This document shows positions 1 through 8,969 of a stretch of DNA of 8,969 nt, in pieces. The position numbers and the translations under genes were made by a program. Source of the stretch: a virus (Duplodnaviria > Heunggongvirae > Uroviricota > Caudoviricetes); IMG/VR virus record IMGVR_UViG_2681813269_000011; one strand, written 5' to 3'. The first letter of the stretch is position 1, and every line of letters begins with the position of its first letter. A model generated the notes under the pieces. That model worked only from the letters and a program-made list of their open reading frames with translations, was not told where the DNA came from and made no database searches.

Positions 1-1630
1 CCTTCACGCCGTCGGTGACGGACTGGACCTCCACGCTGACCGGATTCCCCTGCCCGTCAACCAGGCTTATCAGCGTGGTGCCGGAGGATGGCAGCGTGAT
101 TTCACGGTCGAGCGTCAGCGTCCGGGTCTGGCTGTTTACCGCCAGCACGCGCCCGCCGATGCGGATACCGGCATAGTCATCATCGCAGATTTCAATGACA
201 TCGCCCGGTACATGACGAAGCCCTTCAGCACCCACGCTGAAATCCACGGTCTGCGTCTCCAGCAGTTCCGTTTTAATCAGCCACAGCCCGGCGCGGTGTG
301 CCTGCCCCCGGCTGGTACAGCCAAAGGCATCCATCTTCGTGACGTTACGACCGTAACGGGCAATGGCCTGCGTGTCCTCCACAAGCTCTGTTGCCGTCTC
401 CCAGCCGTTGTTCGGGTCAATCCAGTTCACCTCAACGGCATTATGGCGGTCTTTCAGGGCGCTGAAACTGTAGCGGAACGGCGCGCCATCATCCGGCATC
501 ACCACATTACTGCGGTTATAGGTCCACACCTTATCCGATGGTCGGTCCTGCACGAACGTCAGCGTCTGCCCGTTCCATACCGGCATACAGCGCATCGCCG
601 AGCAGAAATCACTGAGCACATCCCACGCCTTACGCTGTGTGGTCAGGTACGCATTACAGGTGATGCGCGGCTCCGTGCCGCCAAAACCGTCCGGCACCGA
701 CTGGTCACAGTACTGGCCGATGACATACAGCGCCCATTTATCCACATCTGCCGCACCAAGACGTTTCCCCATGCCGTAGCGCGGATGGGTCAGCATATCC
801 CACAGACACCAGGCCATGTTGTTGCTGTATGCCGGTTTAAACGTCCCGTCCCAGATACCGCTGTATTGCCGCGTCTGCGGGTTATAGTTCGACGGCACCT
901 GCAGAATGCGCCCGCGAAGATGATAATTACGGCTCACCTGCTGGCTGCCGAACTGCTCCGAATCCACCTGCACGCCGACCAGTGCCGTGTTCGGGTAGCA
1001 CTGTTTCACATCGATGATTTCGGTGTATGACGACCAGAGCGTTTTGTTCTGCAGCTGGTCTGTGGTGCTGTCCGGTGTCATCCTGCGCATCCGGATATTA
1101 AACGGGCGCGGCGGCAGGTTATCCACCACCACCGAGGCCAGATACTGCGACGTGGTTTTGCCCTTAATGGTGATGTCTTTTTCTGTCACCCAGCCACCGT
1201 TACGTTGTATCTGAACCAGCAGGCGGACTTCCGACGGATTCCGGTCACCCTTTGAGGTGGTTTCCACCAGTGCCTGCACACCGAAGGTAAAGCGCAGACG
1301 GTCGATGTTTGCAGACGTGATGGTCCGGGTGATCGGCGTGTCGTATTTCACTTCCGTACCCAGCACCGTCTCGGAGCCGGAGGATTCAAATCCCTCCGGC
1401 GGTGACTGCTCCTGCTCACCGGCCCGGAACACCACCGTGACGCCGGATATATTGGTATTCCCCTCACTGTCCAGCACCGGCGTACTGTTCAGCAGCACGC
1501 TTTTTAATCCATCCACCGGACCTTCAACCGGCCCTTCGCTGATGGCATCGATCACACTCAGCAGCTGCGTGGACTTCAGGTTGTCCTTCGCTTCGCGCGG
1601 GGTATGCCCCTTACTGCTGCCTTTACCCAT
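1..1630 (-). CDS. J: Tail-tip host-specificity protein J, copy A, N-terminal 543 codons; 3' end continues beyond the left window edge
   Basis: ATG at 1628-1630 (minus strand) with GGAG 8 nt upstream (ctcc at 1639-1642 on plus). Collinear with copy B at offset 2764. I hand-checked this frame from 1031 to position 2 and found no stop. Absent from the ORF track because no stop lies inside the window. Carries allele [11 protein letters not shown] like copy C, not ISTGG like copy B. Confidence 0.85.
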   Translation of the reverse strand, partial: MGKGSSKGHTPREAKDNLKSTQLLSVIDAISEGPVEGPVDGLKSVLLNSTPVLDSEGNTNISGVTVVFRAGEQEQSPPEGFESSGSETVLGTEVKYDTPITRTITSANIDRLRFTFGVQALVETTSKGDRNPSEVRLLVQIQRNGGWVTEKDITIKGKTTSQYLASVVVDNLPPRPFNIRMRRMTPDSTTDQLQNKTLWSSYTEIIDVKQCYPNTALVGVQVDSEQFGSQQVSRNYHLRGRILQVPSNYNPQTRQYSGIWDGTFKPAYSNNMAWCLWDMLTHPRYGMGKRLGAADVDKWALYVIGQYCDQSVPDGFGGTEPRITCNAYLTTQRKAWDVLSDFCSAMRCMPVWNGQTLTFVQDRPSDKVWTYNRSNVVMPDDGAPFRYSFSALKDRHNAVEVNWIDPNNGWETATELVEDTQAIARYGRNVTKMDAFGCTSRGQAHRAGLWLIKTELLETQTVDFSVGAEGLRHVPGDVIEICDDDYAGIRIGGRVLAVNSQTRTLTLDREITLPSSGTTLISLVDGQGNPVSVEVQSVTDGVK

Positions 1631-1640
1631 TCGTCATGCT

Positions 1641-1672
1641 CCATAAACGACAAAACCGCCCGGAGGCGGTTT
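1641..1672 (-). terminator. Terminator-like hairpin in I-J intergenic region (copy A): stem aaaccgcc/ggcggttt, 4-nt loop, then TTTTGTCGTTT on minus strand
   Basis: Stem 1653-1660 pairs with 1665-1672; the minus-strand transcript would read AAACCGCC-UCCG-GGCGGUUU-UGUCGUUUAUGG, running into the J Shine-Dalgarno. Short GC core (5 bp), so terminator function is uncertain. Confidence 0.3.
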
Positions 1673-1690
1673 CACATAAAACATTTTGCA

Positions 1691-1705
1691 TCAGCGACCA
1701 ATCAC
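1691..1705 (-). pseudogene. I: Orphan remnant of I: last 4 codons plus stop (VIGR*), cut off at breakpoint 1705/1706
   Basis: Minus strand reads gtg att ggt cgc tga, identical to the end of intact I (4455-4469); upstream sequence (1706 onward) is unrelated in this orientation. Confidence 0.6.
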
Positions 1706-1914
1706 TGGCACCGAAAGCCAGAACTCCCCGTACACAGACAACGGATAACGGCAAACAGAACACCTATTTCTCCTCACTGGATAACATGGTTGCCCAGGGC
1801 AATGTTCTGCCGGTTCTGTACGGTGAAATGCGCGTGGGGTCACGCGTGGTTTCTCAGGAGATCAGCACGGCAGACGAAGGGGACGGTGGTCAGGTTGTGG
1901 TGATTGGTCGCTGA
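1706..1914 (+). pseudogene. I: I 3' fragment (about the last 69 codons) in inverted, plus-strand orientation
   Basis: Plus-strand translation ends ...APKARTPRTQTTDNGKQNTYFSSLDNMVAQGNVLPVLYGEMRVGSRVVSQEISTADEGDGGQVVVIGR*, the C-terminus of the intact I at 4455-4663 on the opposite strand. Lacks the I start; ORF-track ORF 1636-1914 begins at an ATG in antisense intergenic DNA. Confidence 0.85.
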
Positions 1915-1932
1915 TGCAAAATGTTTTATGTG

Positions 1933-1964
1933 AAACCGCCTCCGGGCGGTTTTGTCGTTTATGG
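1933..1964 (+). terminator. Inverted copy of the I-J intergenic hairpin, now on the plus strand upstream of the plus-strand J fragment
   Basis: aaaccgcc (1933-1940), loop tccg, ggcggttt (1945-1952), then tgtcgtttatgg; mirror image of 1641-1672. Confidence 0.3.
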
Positions 1965-1974
1965 AGCATGACGA

Positions 1975-2574
1975 ATGGGTAAAGGCAGCAGTAAGGGGCA
2001 TACCCCGCGCGAAGCGAAGGACAACCTGAAGTCCACGCAGCTGCTGAGTGTGATCGATGCCATCAGCGAAGGGCCGGTTGAAGGTCCGGTGGATGGATTA
2101 AAAAGCGTGCTGCTGAACAGTACGCCGGTGCTGGACAGTGAGGGGAATACCAATATATCCGGCGTCACGGTGGTGTTCCGGGCCGGTGAGCAGGAGCAGT
2201 CACCGCCGGAGGGATTTGAATCCTCCGGCTCCGAGACGGTGCTGGGTACGGAAGTGAAATACGACACGCCGATCACCCGGACCATCACGTCTGCAAACAT
2301 CGACCGTCTGCGCTTTACCTTCGGTGTGCAGGCACTGGTGGAAACCACCTCAAAGGGTGACCGGAATCCGTCGGAAGTCCGCCTGCTGGTTCAGATACAA
2401 CGTAACGGTGGCTGGGTGACAGAAAAAGACATCACCATTAAGGGCAAAACCACGTCGCAGTATCTGGCCTCGGTGGTGGTGGATAACCTGCCGCCGCGAC
2501 CGTTCAATATCCGGATGCGCAGGATGACACCGGACAGCACCACAGACCAGCTGCAGAACAAAACGCTCTGGTCG
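1975..2574 (+). pseudogene. J: J 5' fragment, codons 1-200, on the plus strand (inverted duplicate); ORF runs on into antisense J sequence to 2940
   Basis: ATG at 1975 with GGAG at 1963-1966; translation MGKGSSKGHTPREAKDNLKSTQLL...[11 protein letters not shown] is identical to the copy B N-terminus for 200 residues, then becomes antisense-derived sequence ([10 protein letters not shown]...). Confidence 0.85.
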
Positions 2575-4394
2575 CCGTCAAAGTGCGCCCCGTTATCCAC
2601 GATGGCTTCTTTTCCCGGTACATGCTGCACGGCAGTGATGGCATACGTGCCGTCATCGTTCTCACGGATACTCACGCAGCGGAACAGGCGCTGGCGCAGC
2701 GTCGGCAGCTTCAGCCCCCACACGCTGTATTCTGCAACGCCGTCAGGAACCCGGCTCACTTTCACCTTCACGCCGTCGGTGACGGACTGGACCTCCACGC
2801 TGACCGGATTGCCACTTCCGTCAACCAGGCTTATCAGCGTGGTACCGGAGGATGGCAGCGTGATTTCACGGTCGAGCGTCAGCGTCCGGGTCTGGCTGTT
2901 CACCGCCAGTACGCGACCACCGGTGCTGATACCGGCATAATCATCATCGCAGATTTCAATGACATCACCCGGTACATGGCGAAGCCCTTCTGCGCCCACG
3001 CTGAAGTCCACGGTCTGCGTTTCCAGCAGTTCTGTTTTAATCAGCCACAGCCCGGCGCGGTGTGCCTGCCCCCGGCTGGTACAGCCAAAGGCATCCATCT
3101 TCGTGACATTACGACCGTAACGGGCAATGGCCTGCGTATCCTCCACAAGCTCTGTCGCCGTCTCCCAGCCGTTATCTGGGTCAATCCAGTTCACCTCAAC
3201 GGCATTATGGCGGTCCTTCAGGGCGCTGAAGCTGTAGCGGAATGGTGCGCCATCATCCGGCATCACCACATTACTGCGGTTATAGGTCCACACCTTATCC
3301 GATGGTCGGTCCTGCACGAACGTCAGCGTCTGCCCGTTCCATACCGGCATACAGCGCATCGCCGAGCAGAAATCACTGAGCACATCCCACGCCTTGCGCT
3401 GTGTGGTCAGCCAGGCATTACAGGTGATGCGCGGCTCCGTGCTGCCAAAGCCGTCCGGCACCGACTGGTCACAGTACTGGCCGATGACATACAGCGCCCA
3501 TTTATCCACATCTGCCGCACCAAGACGTTTCCCCATGCCGTAGCGCGGATGAGTGAGCATGTCCCACAGACACCAGGCCATGTTGTTGCTGTATGCCGGT
3601 TTTAACGTTCCGTCCCAGATACCGCTGTATTGCCGCGTCTGCGGGTTATAGTTCGACGGCACCTGCAGAATGCGCCCGCGAAGATGATAATTACGGCTCA
3701 CCTGCTGGCTGCCGAACTGCTCCGAATCCACCTGCACGCCGACCAGTGCCGTGTTCGGGTAGCACTGTTTCACATCGATGATTTCGGTGTATGACGACCA
3801 GAGCGTTTTGTTCTGCAGCTGGTCTGTGGTGCTGTCCGGTGTCATCCTGCGCATCCGGATATTGAACGGTCGCGGCGGCAGGTTATCCACCACCACCGAG
3901 GCCAGATACTGCGACGTGGTTTTGCCCTTAATGGTGATGTCTTTTTCTGTCACCCAGCCACCGTTACGTTGTATCTGAACCAGCAGGCGGACTTCCGACG
4001 GATTCCGGTCACCCTTTGAGGTGGTTTCCACCAGTGCCTGCACACCGAAGGTAAAGCGCAGACGGTCGATGTTTGCAGACGTGATGGTCCGGGTGATCGG
4101 CGTGTCGTATTTCACTTCCGTACCCAGCACCGTCTCGGAGCCGGAGGATTCAAATCCCTCCGGCGGTGACTGCTCCTGCTCACCGGCCCGGAACACCACC
4201 GTGACGCCGGATATATTGGTATTCCCCTCACTGTCCAGCACCGGCGTACTGTTCAGCAGCACGCTTTTTAATCCATCCACCGGACCTTCAACCGGCCCTT
4301 CGCTGATGGCATCGATCACACTCAGCAGCTGCGTGGACTTCAGGTTGTCCTTCGCTTCGCGCGGGGTATGCCCCTTACTGCTGCCTTTACCCAT
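2391..4394 (-). CDS. J: Tail-tip host-specificity protein J, copy B, disrupted: authentic J residues 1-610 followed by 57 antisense-derived residues
   Basis: 667-aa ORF starting MGKGSSKGHTPREAKDNLKSTQLLSVIDAISEGP, which is the lambda gpJ N-terminus as I recall it. Matches J through ...GAHFDGDQS, then reads VLFCSWSVV..., which equals antisense ORF 1014-1214. Breakpoint within 2564-2574. Native RBS GGAG 8 nt upstream (ctcc at 4403-4406). Confidence 0.9.
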   Translation of the reverse strand: MGKGSSKGHTPREAKDNLKSTQLLSVIDAISEGPVEGPVDGLKSVLLNSTPVLDSEGNTNISGVTVVFRAGEQEQSPPEGFESSGSETVLGTEVKYDTPITRTITSANIDRLRFTFGVQALVETTSKGDRNPSEVRLLVQIQRNGGWVTEKDITIKGKTTSQYLASVVVDNLPPRPFNIRMRRMTPDSTTDQLQNKTLWSSYTEIIDVKQCYPNTALVGVQVDSEQFGSQQVSRNYHLRGRILQVPSNYNPQTRQYSGIWDGTLKPAYSNNMAWCLWDMLTHPRYGMGKRLGAADVDKWALYVIGQYCDQSVPDGFGSTEPRITCNAWLTTQRKAWDVLSDFCSAMRCMPVWNGQTLTFVQDRPSDKVWTYNRSNVVMPDDGAPFRYSFSALKDRHNAVEVNWIDPDNGWETATELVEDTQAIARYGRNVTKMDAFGCTSRGQAHRAGLWLIKTELLETQTVDFSVGAEGLRHVPGDVIEICDDDYAGISTGGRVLAVNSQTRTLTLDREITLPSSGTTLISLVDGSGNPVSVEVQSVTDGVKVKVSRVPDGVAEYSVWGLKLPTLRQRLFRCVSIRENDDGTYAITAVQHVPGKEAIVDNGAHFDGDQSVLFCSWSVVLSGVILRIRILNGRGGRLSTTTEARYCDVVLPLMVMSFSVTQPPLRCI

Positions 4395-4404
4395 TCGTCA
4401 TGCT

Positions 4405-4436
4405 CCATAAACGACAAAACCGCCCGGAGGCGGTTT
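4405..4436 (-). terminator. Terminator-like hairpin in the native I-J intergenic region, followed by U-rich tract overlapping the J RBS
   Basis: Stem 4417-4424 pairs with 4429-4436, loop cgga; on the minus strand this is followed by TTTTGTCGTTTATGG. Same element as 1641-1672. Confidence 0.3.
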
Positions 4437-4454
4437 CACATAAAACATTTTGCA

Positions 4455-5126
4455 TCAGCGACCAATCACCACAACCTGACCACCGTCCCCTTCGTCTGCC
4501 GTGCTGATCTCCTGAGAAACCACGCGTGACCCCACGCGCATTTCACCGTACAGAACCGGCAGAACATTGCCCTGGGCAACCATGTTATCCAGTGAGGAGA
4601 AATAGGTGTTCTGTTTGCCGTTATCCGTTGTCTGTGTACGGGGAGTTCTGGCTTTCGGTGCCAGCATCTGCGCCACACCACCGAGCACCATACTGGCACC
4701 GAGAGAAAACAGGATGCCGGTCATACCACCGGTCCCAATGGCTGCCCCCCATGCTGCAAGGGTGGCTCCGGCGGTAAAGAATGATCCGGCAATGGCGGCA
4801 GCCCCCAGGACAATCTGGAATACGCCACCTGACTTGGCCCCGGCGACTCTGGGAACAATATGAATCACAGCGCCATCAGGCAGAGTCTCATGTAACTGCG
4901 CCGTTAACCCGGACGTGCTGACGTCCCGCCCGGCAATCCGTACCTGATACCAGCCGTCGCTCAGTTTCTGACGAAACGCCGGGAGCTGTGTGGCCAGTGC
5001 CCGGATGGCTTCAGCCCCCGTTTTCACACGAAGGTCGATGCGGCGACCAAATCGTTGTAAATCCCCGTAAAGGCAGATGCGCGCCATGCCCGGTGACGCC
5101 AGAGGGAGTGTGTGCGTCGCTGCCAT
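4455..5126 (-). CDS. I: Tail assembly protein I (gpI-like, 223 aa)
   Basis: Intact 223-aa ORF MAATHTLPLASPGMARICLYGDLQRFGRRIDLRV...GGQVVVIGR matching lambda gpI as recalled, with Gly/Ala-rich hydrophobic central segment. Overlaps the K 3' end by 103 nt and lies 60 nt upstream of J. Confidence 0.95.
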   Translation of the reverse strand: MAATHTLPLASPGMARICLYGDLQRFGRRIDLRVKTGAEAIRALATQLPAFRQKLSDGWYQVRIAGRDVSTSGLTAQLHETLPDGAVIHIVPRVAGAKSGGVFQIVLGAAAIAGSFFTAGATLAAWGAAIGTGGMTGILFSLGASMVLGGVAQMLAPKARTPRTQTTDNGKQNTYFSSLDNMVAQGNVLPVLYGEMRVGSRVVSQEISTADEGDGGQVVVIGR

Positions 5127-5767
5127 TTGTCGGTGTACCTCTCTCGTTTGCTCAGTTGTTCAGGAATATGGTGCAGCAGCTCGCCGTCGCCGCAGTAAAT
5201 TGCGGCGTGATTCGGCACTGATGAACCAAAACAGCACAGCAGCACATCGCCCGGCTGTGCCGCTGACAACGGCACCTGATACAGCCCCGTCGCCTCCAGA
5301 TTATCCAGATAGAGATTCTGGCCGTTACGCCACCAGTCATCCTCACGATAAAAGTCCGGCATCTCAATCCCCGCCAGATGATAAGCATCCCGGAACAGTG
5401 TGTAACAGTCCGTCACACCGTGCTCAAAGCGCCGCCCGGTGAGATGCGGCACACAGCGGAACTTATGAATCGTCCCCCGGCAGACCAGCCACCACGGCAA
5501 ATCACTCTGCACCTGCAGCCGCCGGTCGGCCTCACTCAGCCAGGGCAGACCACCGGGGTGGCTGTGGACCAGCGCCACAATCTCACCCTGCATTTCTGCC
5601 TGCAGCCAGTCTTCCGGCGACATACGGAAATACGCCTCCGGCTCACCGGAGATATTCACGCAGGGAAAATATCTTTCCCCCTCCGGCGTGCTTACCACGA
5701 AGCCGCACGACTCCGCTGGCGCACATCGCCGGGCGTGCGCCAGAATCGCTGATTCTGTCTGTGTCAT
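5024..5767 (-). CDS. K: Tail assembly protein K (gpK-like) with JAMM/MPN and NlpC/P60 signatures
   Basis: 247-aa ORF MTQTESAILAHARRCAPAESCGFVV... with an exact JAMM motif H68-x-H70-x7-S78-x2-D81 (HSHPGGLPWLSEAD) and NlpC/P60-type Cys121 (GVTDCYTLF) and His187 (NHAAIY). Start is 5 nt after the L stop. Confidence 0.93.
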   Translation of the reverse strand: MTQTESAILAHARRCAPAESCGFVVSTPEGERYFPCVNISGEPEAYFRMSPEDWLQAEMQGEIVALVHSHPGGLPWLSEADRRLQVQSDLPWWLVCRGTIHKFRCVPHLTGRRFEHGVTDCYTLFRDAYHLAGIEMPDFYREDDWWRNGQNLYLDNLEATGLYQVPLSAAQPGDVLLCCFGSSVPNHAAIYCGDGELLHHIPEQLSKRERYTDKWQRRTHSLWRHRAWRASAFTGIYNDLVAASTFV

Positions 5768-5772
5768 GGGAT

Positions 5773-6471
5773 TTACTGCGAAAGTTTGTTAATGGAAAGG
5801 AAGCCGCCAAAGTTGCCGACGTTATTGCGGAACTTACAACCGCTCAGGCATTTGCTGCATTTATCCTTCGTGATATCGGACGTTGGCTGGTCATATTCAT
5901 CCGCGACAGCCGGACCGCTATAACCGCACTCGTCACCGCGATAGGTCCAGGTGCAGGTATTGGCCAGCATGATACGTCCCGGAAAAACAGCGCCATCCGT
6001 TTCCGTCGGCGTGGACAGTACAAAGGAGGCACTCACCGCGCTCAGTTCGCTGCACTGCTCAATGCGCCAGCGGCTGATCACCTCCTGCTCCGGATCGGCG
6101 TAACTGTTTCCGTTGACGAAGTTCACCGCATCCAGAAAACGGGCGTAAACCTTACGCCGGACCACCGTTCCGCCGACCAGACTCTGCAGATCTTCCGCCA
6201 TCCCGGTGACCATACCGTACAGGTTAGAAACCGTCAGCGTGGGGCGCGTACTGGTGCCTTTGCCATTCAGTTCAAAACCGCTCCCCTGAATGGGATACGG
6301 CTGATACTGTCGCCCCTGCCAGGTGACCGGCTCACCTTTTTCGTTCTGCTCATTACAGAAAAAATAACGTTCTCCACCGACCTCTGTCAGGTCGATTTCC
6401 CAGAGCACCACGCTGGCCGACTGCTCCGCACGGGTGCATTCATTCAGTGTTTCCTGCCGGATATCCTGCAT
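5773..6471 (-). CDS. L: Tail tip protein L (gpL-like, 232 aa)
   Basis: 232-aa ORF MQDIRQETLNECTRAEQSASVVLWEIDLTEVGGERYFFCNEQNEKGEP... ending in the Cys-rich motif DKCSKCLSGCKF, matching lambda gpL as recalled. ATG overlaps the upstream stop by 1 nt (TGATG); AGGTGG lies 7 nt upstream. Confidence 0.95.
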   Translation of the reverse strand: MQDIRQETLNECTRAEQSASVVLWEIDLTEVGGERYFFCNEQNEKGEPVTWQGRQYQPYPIQGSGFELNGKGTSTRPTLTVSNLYGMVTGMAEDLQSLVGGTVVRRKVYARFLDAVNFVNGNSYADPEQEVISRWRIEQCSELSAVSASFVLSTPTETDGAVFPGRIMLANTCTWTYRGDECGYSGPAVADEYDQPTSDITKDKCSKCLSGCKFRNNVGNFGGFLSINKLSQ

Positions 6472-6516
6472 CAGTTCACCACCTGTTCAAACTCTGCGCT
6501 GAACTCAACACGCAGC
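6471..6516 (-). pseudogene. M: M 3' remnant, last ~15 codons only ([14 protein letters not shown])
   Basis: Minus-strand frame ending at TGA (6471-6473) reads ...[14 protein letters not shown], which I recall as the C-terminus of lambda gpM (109 aa). Homology stops abruptly at about 6516/6517, where J-derived sequence begins in another frame. Boundary is +/-3 nt because it is inferred from the protein. Confidence 0.6.
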
Positions 6517-8969
6517 AATGGTGGGGGCCGTCAGGCGTTTCAGGAACACGTCGTTCATGAATATCTGATCGCCCTGACCAACAAACATCGGTTTTGTGTT
6601 GCCATTCGCAGGATTAACCATCGCAATCCTGTCCGCCGCCAGCAGCACCTGACTCTGCATGCCGTCAGGGGTGTTCTCAATACCGGCACCAATACCCGCG
6701 ATATAAAGGCGTCCGTCCTGCATCTGCTGCAGCTTCACAGCCCACATGCTGTTCAGGTTATTATTTGTATCAACCTGAACCTTCTGTATCTGCTGAATTG
6801 CCGCACTCTGGTCTTCCAGTTTCTTATTGACGGTCTGCGTGATTTCATTGCTGACATCCGTAATGGACGTCCTGATTTCAGCCAGGTCAGGCGCAAGCTG
6901 ACCGTTATCAATCTGCGTCCACAGCTCCTGAGCCAGATGGGTTTTCCCTATCTCGCCTTTGAAAAAATCCAGATAGCCGGATGCATCATCACTCGGCTGA
7001 CCAACAGCCTCCACGAATGCCGATTTGCCAACGGTGTTCACACTGCGAACGTAAAAATAATAATCATGGCCCGGTTTGATATTGATACTGGCGGCTATCC
7101 AGTACAGCGCCGTGCCAAGATAGCGGGCTGTGGTTTCAACCTGCCTGATATCGGTAATCCGCTTTTCCGAGAACCAGAACTCAAACTGTACCGTCGGGTC
7201 ATAAACGGCAAGATGCGGCGTGGCGGTTATCTGAAAATAGCCCGGCGTCAGCTCAATCCGCGACGGCACTGCAGGTGCGGCAATCCGGAACGATACCGAT
7301 GCCGGATCGCCCTGCTGCCCCCACGCATTTACCGCCCGGACTGTCAGCCTGTAGTTCCCCAGCGCCAGCTGCCTGAAGCGGTATGCGGTTTCCGCCGTCC
7401 GGGCCGTGCTGACCAGCCGCTCACTGCCGTCATCCGCTGCCACGGTCAGGCGAAGCAGGAAACTCACGCCCTTCACCACCTTCGGCGTGTCCCAGCGGGC
7501 CAGTACCTGATACTCCCCGCTGTCTGCGGTGACTTCGGCAGTCAGGTGCTGTACCGCTGGCGGCGTGACACCATTCACCGTGCCGCTCTGGTCGCCGTCA
7601 AAGTGCGCCCCGTTATCCACGATGGCTTCTTTTCCCGGTACATGCTGCACGGCAGTGATGGCATACGTGCCGTCATCGTTCTCACGGATACTCACGCAGC
7701 GGAACAGGCGCTGGCGCAACGTCGGCAACTTCAGCCCCCACACGCTGTATTCTGCAACGCCGTCAGGAACACGGCTCACTTTTACCTTCACGCCGTCGGT
7801 GACGGACTGGACCTCCACGCTGACCGGATTGCCACTTCCGTCAACCAGGCTTATCAGCGTGGTACCGGAGGATGGCAGCGTGATTTCACGGTCGAGCGTC
7901 AGCGTCCGGGTCTGGCTGTTTACCGCCAGCACGCGCCCGCCGATGCGGATACCGGCATAGTCATCATCGCAGATTTCAATGACATCGCCCGGTACATGGC
8001 GAAGCCCTTCAGCACCCACGCTGAAGTCCACGGTCTGCGTTTCCAGCAGTTCTGTTTTAATCAGCCACAGCCCGGCGCGGTGTGCCTGCCCCCGGCTGGT
8101 ACAGCCAAAGGCATCCATCTTCGTGACGTTACGACCGTAACGGGCAATGGCCTGCGTGTCCTCCACAAGCTCTGTTGCCGTCTCCCAGCCGTTGTTCGGG
8201 TCAATCCAGTTCACCTCAACGGCATTATGGCGGTCCTTCAGGGCGCTGAAGCTGTAGCGGAATGGTGCGCCATCATCCGGCATCACCACATTACTGCGGT
8301 TATAGGTCCACACCTTATCCGACGGTCGGTCCTGCACGAACGTCAGCGTCTGCCCGTTCCATACCGGCATACAGCGCATCGCCGAGCAGAAATCACTGAG
8401 CACATCCCACGCCTTACGCTGTGTGGTCAGGTACGCATTACAGGTGATGCGCGGCTCCGTGCCGCCAAATCCGTCCGTCACTGACTGGTCGCAGTACTGG
8501 CCGATGACATACAGCGCCCATTTGTCCACATCTGCCGCACCAAGACGTTTCCCCATGCCGTAGCGCGGATGGGTCAGCATATCCCACAGACACCAGGCCA
8601 TGTTGTTGCTGTATGCCGGTTTAAACGTCCCGTCCCAGATACCGCTGTATTGCCGCGTCTGCGGGTTATAGTTCGACGGCACCTGCAGAATGCGCCCGCG
8701 AAGATGATAATTGCGACTCACCTGCTGGTTACCGAACTGCTCTGAATCCACCTGCACGCCGACCAGCGCCGTGTTCGGGTAGCACTGTTTCACATCGATG
8801 ATTTCGGTGTATGACGACCAGAGCGTTTTGTTCTGCAGCTGGTCTGTGGTGCTGTCCGGTGTCATCCTGCGCATCCGGATATTGAACGGTCGCGGCGGCA
8901 GGTTACCCACCACCACCGAGGCCAGATACTGCGAAGTGGTTTTGCCCTTAATGGTGATGTCTTTTTCCG
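6505..8969 (-). CDS. J: Tail-tip host-specificity protein J, copy C; 5' end beyond the right window edge, 3' end cut at the junction with the M remnant; about codons 150-969
   Basis: Open minus-strand frame from the window edge to the stop at 6505-6507; collinear with copy B at offset 5020 and intact through the region where B is broken (...[27 protein letters not shown]...). Ends ...[15 protein letters not shown] then AAC*, where lambda gpJ as recalled continues TSGGNPPAF. Confidence 0.9.

Follow-up and report, generated by a model that had tools for sequence, protein, structure and literature searches.

Direct repeats with an inverted copy between them are described as inverted triplications, known as tandem inversion duplication in Salmonella, as ODIRA in yeast and as DUP-TRP/INV-DUP rearrangements in humans (PMC4689423). 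Joins between repeated sequences are also produced during the assembly of short reads. The Sanger pipeline, from which 299 S. sonnei drafts with a mean of 405 contigs are reported, applies SSPACE and 120 iterations of GapFiller to reads not mapped in proper pairs, and its authors state that false joins are possible and found 4–10 misassemblies per test genome (PMC5320598). The default of GapFiller for closing a gap is an overlap of at least 10 nt between the extensions (PMC3446322). The locus described here lies in the tail-tip module of lambda-like prophages, an interval that is present a median of 3–4 times per E. coli genome.

The window, which is the whole stretch of 8,969 bp that we analysed, is the entire contig CXNR01000286.1 from the draft assembly GCA_001256515.1 of Shigella sonnei. 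The assembly is fragmented; the contig has an accession number of 286 or higher in the set, and both of its ends fall within J. Mapping to a canonical prophage reference (locus L001) places the whole window on one 5,020-bp lambda-like tail-tip interval (M'-L-K-I-J), which is used four times: three direct J copies (A, B and C) and one inverted 870-bp block (1705–2574). The resulting gene order is J'-inverted I'J'-J'-I-K-L-M'-J', so that the collinear order M-L-K-I-J-lom of the reference is broken at three places, the joins J1, J2 and J3 (Table 1). Pfam finds the domain content of a tail tip, with Phage_tail_L, Prok-JAB+NLPC_P60, Lambda_tail_I and FNIII-A_GpJ/Phage-tail_3/Ig_J/Phage_Tail_Tip, and no J, I, K or L fragment of the window contains internal stops or indels. 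Pfam gives no match for the long ORFs on the antisense strand, of 272, 340 and 907 aa.

Table 1. Blocks, joins, inverted-repeat elements and join-spanning reading frames of the window
Feature	Position	Strand	Reference L001	Content
Copy A (block S1)	1..1705	-	7269-8973, 97.3% identity	J codons 1 to ~544 (ATG at 1630), I-J intergenic region, last 15 nt of I; cut by contig start; Pfam FNIII-A_GpJ and Phage-tail_3
Block S2 (inverted)	1705..2574	+	9168->8299	Last 210 nt of I, intergenic region, J codons 1-200
Copy B (block S3)	2564..6517	-	7068-11021, 97.9% identity	J codons 1 to ~607 (ATG 4394), I 4455-5027/5126, K 5024-5767, L 5773-6471, last 46 nt of M; Pfam Lambda_tail_I, Prok-JAB/NLPC_P60, Phage_tail_L
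Copy C (block S4)	6517..8969	-	6001-8453, 96.8% identity	J codons ~149 to 966; cut by contig end; artificial stop 6505-6507 just beyond J3; Pfam Phage-tail_3, Ig_J, Ig_J_second, Phage_Tail_Tip (truncated at profile position 97/139)
Join J1	1705		8973 (forward) to 9168 (reverse)	Fold-back, 1 nt overlap
Join J2	2564..2574		8299-8309 (reverse complement) = 7068-7078	11-nt overlap CGCTCTGGTCG between S2 end and copy-B start
Join J3	6517		11021 (inside M) to 6001 (J codon ~966)	Direct 5,020-bp back-jump, 1 nt overlap
Left arm of inverted repeat	1031..1705			Portion of copy A overlapping the inverted block
Right arm of inverted repeat	1900..2574			Bears copy-B alleles
'194-bp spacer'	1706..1899	+		Portion of block S2 (I 3' coding) past the end of copy A
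Chimeric 92-aa ORF over J1	1636..1914	+		Annotated 'Tail assembly protein I', CTD34248.1
Chimeric 667-aa ORF over J2	2391..4394	-		CTD34257.1; J codons 1 to ~607 and ~60 antisense-derived residues past J2

The initial annotation described a long inverted duplication at the I/J junction, and its account of the arms is accurate. They are reverse complements in which x pairs with 3605-x, with identity at 673/675 positions, and as it stated they are near-identical without being perfect: mismatches occur at 1100/2505 and 1106/2499, and at both the right arm has the copy-B base. Chance cannot account for a match of 675 nt at 99.7%, and pairing ends abruptly outside the arms, where 12 of the 59 adjoining positions match. 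The spacer is indeed plus-oriented sequence from the 3' part of gene I (stop TGA 1912–1914), and the second J start on the plus strand is also correct (ATG 1975, GGAG 1963–1966, 200 open J codons). The description is nevertheless incomplete. The true inverted unit is 870 nt long and is an exact reverse complement of copy-B positions 3795–4664 (870/870), its right end meets copy B through an 11-nt overlap at 2564–2574, and the window has in addition a third copy of J and a third join, at 6517. The overlap at J2 is one of about seven distinct exact inverted matches of at least 11 nt in the 5-kb interval. J1 has no flanking complementarity beyond its single overlapping nucleotide. All six breakpoint ends lie within one paralogous 5-kb module, not in IS or chromosomal DNA.

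The three direct copies differ by 2.5–3.2% in the comparisons A/B, A/C and B/C, mostly at third codon positions and with no indels, and therefore none is a recent duplicate of another. Between copies A and B there are 43/1705 differences, again with no indels; 36 affect third codon positions, and 41 lie in 1–1030. Copies B and C differ at 44/1384 sites. These differences have the character of natural alleles. Beside such true paralogues the window contains an exact inverted re-use of copy-B sequence (block S2), a combination expected of a misassembly.

We searched for the three joins in a set of 5,426 complete E. coli genomes, which hold ~15,000–25,000 copies of the tail-tip locus and belong to collections from which Shigella is excluded. 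The window sequence is 96–98% identical to thousands of lambdoid prophages. Megablast of each junction gave no match spanning J1, J2 or J3 in the 5,426 genomes, and a query covering both J1 and J2 found neither join spanned in 50,697 phage and 72,556 plasmid records. The initial annotation had proposed searching 1650–1960 for the same configuration in other genomes; in effect this was done here, and matches end exactly at 1705 in complete E. coli, phages and plasmids, with the configuration absent. Exact junction words are absent for J1 from GTDB representatives, JGI metagenomes and IMG/VR, for J2 from GTDB representatives and IMG/VR, and for J3 from JGI metagenomes and IMG/VR. None of the 64 loci examined spans the joins; the order is the canonical H-M-L-K-I-J-lom in all ten loci that encode an identical K protein, the reference is likewise canonical, and the gene order of the window occurs in none of the ~15,000–25,000 tail-tip copies. 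In the collections searched, no independent assembly or complete genome thus reproduces the joins, which is the behaviour expected of a misassembly.

The proteins encoded across the joins are equally private to this contig. The 92-aa product over J1 (CTD34248.1) forms a singleton cluster among ~15 billion proteins and is found on CXNR01000286.1 only, and the same contig is the only source of the exact 667-aa product over J2 (CTD34257.1). The uniqueness of these two products stands although S. sonnei is heavily sequenced. Exact look-ups of the 321-aa plus-strand ORF and the 786-aa ORF spanning J3 returned no protein record at all, so these two are uninformative either way. A 600-aa partial S. 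sonnei J protein ending near J2 (P0010) was considered as a relative of that join and rejected, as it is a different allele and ends ~25–30 nt away.

Other S. sonnei drafts contain nine different versions of the same 209-aa stretch of J, and 9/13 polymorphic sites in this stretch merely toggle between the variants of copies A, B and C. Most of the S. sonnei draft contigs that bear the stretch are 1.3–5 kb long, and the region is mostly broken into contigs of 1–5 kb. Two further draft-derived contigs (L025 and L051) carry similar scrambles, the joins of which are likewise non-contiguous in complete genomes. Among the loci compared, the true alleles of the isolate, that is, those of copies A, B and C in a natural context, were not recovered. 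The ten loci with identical K and 50 IMG/VR loci found with allele-specific words have ~98% identity at most, with perfect J runs of ~200–460 nt, and the best of ~15,000 J copies from E. coli is 97.7% identical. When the copies are modelled as a phase-scrambling of three natural haplotypes, the best triple still fails at 50/1,185 positions, a result that weighs neither for nor against such scrambling.

Taken as a whole, the evidence makes it probable that genome assembly created the inverted duplication through repeat-induced false joins, and that it would not be found in the chromosome. An assembly or chimeric-read artefact was one of two readings offered by the initial annotation, and it is the one favoured by a short all-repeat contig in which all three joins are unique, one block is re-used exactly and the direct copies have diverged. 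The other, a fold-back in a decaying prophage, finds no support: there are no internal stops or indels, the copies are 2.5–3.2% apart, and no other assembly examined has the configuration. The contig is a short-read draft contig that consists wholly of multi-copy sequence and ends inside the repeat, as would be expected of a misassembly. The isolate would have three or more lambda-like prophages or prophage remnants, with tail-tip modules (M-L-K-I-J) that are ~97% identical and have stretches of several hundred bases in common. A short-read assembler would be unable to phase such near-identical copies, and greedy scaffolding with gap closure may then have strung pieces of them into one 8,969-bp contig. 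Copy A would have been joined to an inverted re-use of the 870-bp copy-B stretch at J1, this stretch to copy B at J2, and copy B to copy C at J3.

The joins were presumably made by a pipeline of the Velvet/SSPACE/GapFiller type working on reads that were not properly paired, and J2 may represent a gap closed on a chance 11-nt overlap. The GapFiller rule of at least 10 nt fits J2 (11 nt) but not J1 or J3 (1 nt each). A pure de Bruijn contig requires read support for every k-mer. Because of their 1-nt overlaps, J1 and J3 therefore need chimeric reads or some concatenation step. The accession style, the Prokka-like product names and the species suggest that the assembly comes from the Sanger pipeline; the assembly accession was found in no paper, nor in the supplement text of PMC5320598.

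The direct-inverted-direct order and the 11-nt microhomology would also be expected from in vivo template switching. A real inverted triplication private to the isolate, of the TID/ODIRA or DUP-TRP/INV-DUP type, would have arisen by replication template switching between the tail modules of several resident prophages, together with the tandem-type join J3; judged from the sequence, we consider this improbable. It would explain why copy A (direct), S2 (inverted) and copy B (direct) have the topology of an inverted triplication, in which the central copy is inverted (PMC4689423), why J2 falls on an inverted repeat of 11 nt that already existed, when the interval has only ~7 of these, and, through a recent copying event, why S2 is identical to copy B. 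Moreover, given a spacer of 194 nt, enterobacteria would be able to tolerate an inverted repeat of 675 bp. However, the divergence between A and B (43/1705) and between B and C (44/1384) means that the three direct copies do not come from one recent event and lack the near-identity expected of one. Microhomology of the kind described for such junctions (PMC4689423) is present at J2 and not at J1, and J1 and J3 have only 1 nt each. A triplication would further need three illegitimate joins among three different alleles within 9 kb. No join is present in any other assembly, the products spanning J1 and J2 are unique despite the clonality and heavy sequencing of the species, and the sole carrier is a short all-repeat contig of a fragmented draft.

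Slightly less probable again is an origin of the joins in vitro, as fold-back or ligation chimeras formed during library preparation and then incorporated by the assembler. The 11-nt inverted microhomology at J2 suits fold-back priming and fill-in of a strand, and chimeras could also account for J1 and J3, which have no usable overlap. In addition, the improvement step of the probable pipeline uses only non-proper pairs, with thresholds down to 5 read pairs, and so enriches chimeric fragments (PMC5320598). Chimeras at one given position are, however, normally far too rare to be assembled, and three of them in one contig are unlikely unless a multi-copy region and low thresholds combine. This possibility overlaps with an assembly artefact rather than excluding it. 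A programmed invertible segment, acting as a host-range switch of the Gin/Cin/Pin type, has a negligible probability; its only support is that an inverted segment in a phage tail-gene region superficially resembles such a system. The anatomy of the window refutes it: all bases of the window are homologous to M'-L-K-I-J, leaving no room for an invertase gene, and Pfam scans gave tail-protein domains only, with no recombinase domain in the window. Instead of short crossover sites flanking alternative C-terminal exons, the window has a repeat that consists of 675 bp of coding sequence from I 3'/J 5', and inversion would yield no alternative intact J.

If the structure is an assembly artefact, as we favour, then no biological meaning should be drawn from CXNR01000286.1 or from its annotations, among them a 92-aa 'Tail assembly protein I' and a 667-aa 'host specificity protein'. 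Scrambled contigs and chimeric alleles would then arise repeatedly from the multi-copy tail genes of lambdoid prophages in short-read drafts of Shigella and E. coli, and these can distort studies of pangenomes, prophages and recombination. A real structure would be of modest interest: a complex rearrangement private to this isolate, lying in a defective prophage and serving no obvious function. The prophage remnant would carry a fold-back I/J junction (arms of 675 bp, spacer of 194 bp), to which a tandem-type join from J to M would be linked. This would be a natural bacterial complex inverted triplication built from diverged paralogues via template switching between prophage tail modules.

All of the window sequence belongs to the tail-tip module M-L-K-I-J of E. 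coli and Shigella lambdoid prophages, from which it differs in gene order. Compared with the inverted triplications of Salmonella (tandem inversion duplication), yeast (ODIRA) and humans (DUP-TRP/INV-DUP), it shares the direct-inverted-direct arrangement and one junction at an 11-nt inverted repeat (PMC4689423). In those systems the direct copies are identical, whereas here they are 2.5–3.2% apart; moreover, homology at the other inversion junction amounts to 1 nt, an extra tandem-type junction leads to a third allele, and the structure is known from assembly sequence alone. Compared with the false joins made by SSPACE and GapFiller (PMC5320598, PMC3446322), two of the three joins in the window are without usable overlap, and use of that pipeline here is probable rather than documented. 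The window resembles them in being a short multi-copy contig in a fragmented draft, in which paralogues are concatenated and a segment is re-used exactly, with one join just above the 10-nt default and joins that are unique to one assembly.

The inverted repeat in the window belongs to a larger pattern than the initial annotation described. The 675-bp arms that it reported (1031-1705 and 1900-2574) are indeed reverse complements, with position x pairing with 3605-x and 673 of 675 nt identical. The mismatches lie at 1100/2505 and 1106/2499, where the right arm carries the copy-B base, as the annotation had it, and complementarity drops off sharply outside the arms. The second J start on the plus strand is also borne out (ATG at 1975, GGAG at 1963-1966, 200 open J codons). 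Self-comparison of the window gives an inverted unit of 870 nt (1705-2574), the exact reverse complement of 3795-4664 (870/870), and the supposed 194-bp spacer is the portion of this inverted block, S2, that runs past the end of copy A. The same comparison reveals three direct copies of one J region, A, B and C, which differ from each other by 2.5-3.2%. Copy A (1-1705) is matched by the copy B stretch 2765-4469, and copy B in turn is matched by copy C, at 2564-3947 and 7584-8967 respectively. According to Pfam, the minus strand carries tail-tip genes of lambda type, namely I, K, L and fragments of J.

Collinearity with the canonical prophage L001, used as reference (order lom-J-I-K-L-M-H), is broken at three points, the joins J1, J2 and J3. 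The window consists of four L001 blocks, and therefore all of its bases come from one 5,020-bp interval, which extends from about J codon 966 to 46 nt within M. The overlap at J2 is one of only about seven distinct exact inverted matches of at least 11 nt in this interval. At J3 a J fragment, cut within the Phage_Tail_Tip domain, abuts the terminal 46 nt of M, with L next in line, so that the tail-tip module looks tandemly repeated in the contig.

Blocks and joins of the window, with two comparison contigs in their own coordinates
Feature	Position	L001 position	Type	Overlap at join
S1 (copy A)	1-1705	7269-8973	direct	
S2	1705-2574	9168→8299	inverted	
S3 (copy B)	2564-6517	7068-11021	direct	
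S4 (copy C)	6517-8969	6001-8453	direct	
J1	1705		fold-back join	1 nt
J2	2564-2574		inverted-to-direct join	11 nt, CGCTCTGGTCG
J3	6517		direct back-jump, 5,020 bp	1 nt
L025	1-13840		three partial lom-J3' copies in succession, different alleles	
L051	1-13276		truncated J joined to H/M/L/K; further J 5' fragment at contig end	

Between 80 and 85% of the differences among the copies fall at third codon positions, there are no indels, and no J fragment of the window contains a stop codon. The copies are thus natural alleles from different prophages rather than sequencing errors or decayed pseudogenes. Compared with the roughly 15,000 J copies of complete E. coli genomes, none of the J alleles (1-1704, 2575-4469, 6518-8969) finds a match above 97.7%, whereas pieces of about 160-360 nt match at 99.4-100%. 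Natural J genes are fine mosaics, and the window blocks may additionally be chimeric.

A chimeric 667-aa ORF across J2 led to the source of the window, which is the entire contig CXNR01000286.1 (8,969 bp) of the draft assembly GCA_001256515.1. The deposited proteins CTD34257.1 and CTD34248.1 are labelled Shigella sonnei, and both termini of the contig lie within J. For gene I (4455-5126, minus strand), an upstream in-frame ATG gives 223 aa; the record has 190 aa, starting at 5027 with a 4-nt overlap with the K stop, and annotations of this gene in other genomes have 190, 210 or 223 aa. The plus-strand ORFs antisense to J and L at 212-1030 (272 aa), 2583-3605 (340 aa) and 5761-8484 (907 aa) have no match in Pfam and probably reflect spurious gene calling in antisense frames rich in GC. 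The 272-aa ORF is deposited as 'Uncharacterised protein' CTD34242.1, and 34 entries of S. sonnei and E. coli resemble it.

Complete E. coli genomes (5,426 examined) contain a median of 3-4 copies of the tail-tip locus each, and none of their records spans J1, J2 or J3; matches end exactly at the joins. Phage records (50,697) and plasmid records (72,556) likewise leave J1 and J2 unspanned, their matches covering exactly 1705-2574, and none of 64 fetched loci spans the joins. Exact junction words are missing from GTDB representatives (J1, J2), JGI metagenomes (J1, J3) and IMG/VR (all three). Canonical gene order was found in 10/10 independent loci with an identical K protein. In a set of about 15 billion proteins, a 92-aa ORF across J1 forms a cluster with no other member, and a single contig carries the 667-aa ORF. 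S. sonnei is a clonal pathogen that has been very heavily sequenced, and any real structure would thus need to be private to this isolate.

The initial annotation had left two origins open, a real fold-back in a decaying prophage and an assembly or chimeric-read artefact. The uniqueness of the joins, the exact re-use of a block and the divergence of the copies favour an assembly artefact over the fold-back, and we consider it likely that the inverted duplication is not a real feature and arose by false joining while a multi-copy region was being assembled. This interpretation is preferred because the window is a short contig of a fragmented draft made solely of repeat sequence, because it holds three unique joins within 9 kb, and because all six breakpoint ends share one paralogous module, with none in IS or chromosomal DNA. 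Moreover, one block is re-used exactly whereas genuine paralogues differ by about 3%, and the direct copies are too diverged for recent duplicates. A real inverted triplication of the TID/ODIRA/DUP-TRP/INV-DUP class would agree with the direct-inverted-direct block order and with the inverted microhomology of 11 nt on which J2 lies (PMC4689423), but the copy identity that defines this class fails (A and B differ at 43 of 1705 positions), the pre-existing inverted repeat that also defines it is missing at J1, and, besides J1 and J2, a further illegitimate join would be required to reach a third allele; we regard this origin as improbable. Fold-back chimeras made in the library, a sub-variant of the artefact, appear very improbable. 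An invertase-type switch is ruled out by the anatomy of the window.

Other drafts point to similar behaviour of this region. The ORF annotated in antisense at 212-1030 falls into one cluster with versions of 209 aa (window 212-838; P0049-P0061 set) from other S. sonnei assemblies, nine proteins with nine different sequences, in which 9 of 13 polymorphic sites merely toggle between copy A, B and C variants. In a clonal species such toggling is the expected outcome of paralogue phase-switching during assembly, and it suggests that phase-switching (or gene conversion) in J is widespread across S. sonnei drafts. Contigs carrying the 209-aa versions are mostly only 1.3-5 kb, so the J region normally shatters in these drafts. 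Two IMG/VR contigs that derive from drafts of isolate genomes are scrambled in a comparable way, L025 in lom/J and L051 in J/H-M-L-K, and complete E. coli genomes do not show their joins as contiguous sequence either. In contrast to the scrambles of the window, the locus L012, on a 4.46-Mb contig (GCA_964040355.1), carries a single clean 2.4-kb deletion (reference 7026→9444, at about 10827-10828) that is genuine prophage decay and has fused I, at reference 9444, with J, at reference 7026; the two overlap by about 2 nt. On the J side this deletion ends no more than about 50 nt from the J2 position, and the partial S. sonnei J sequence P0010 stops in the same vicinity, at codon 600; no evidence of a connection between these breakpoints was found.

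The accession series, Prokka-style names and species suggest that GCA_001256515.1 was made by the Sanger high-throughput pipeline, the source of 299 S. sonnei assemblies that average 405 contigs (PMC5320598); a search of the pipeline paper's supplement text did not turn up this accession. The pipeline uses SSPACE scaffolding and 120 rounds of GapFiller, applied to reads without a proper-pair mapping and with thresholds reduced to five read pairs, and its authors describe such greedy tools as capable of false joins and report 4-10 misassemblies per test genome (PMC5320598), which fits false joining as the origin of the window. By default, GapFiller closes a gap once extensions overlap by at least 10 nt (PMC3446322). 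J1 and J3 have no usable overlap for this rule and could derive from chimeric fragments enriched among the non-proper pairs, whereas J2, with its 11-nt overlap, fits it.
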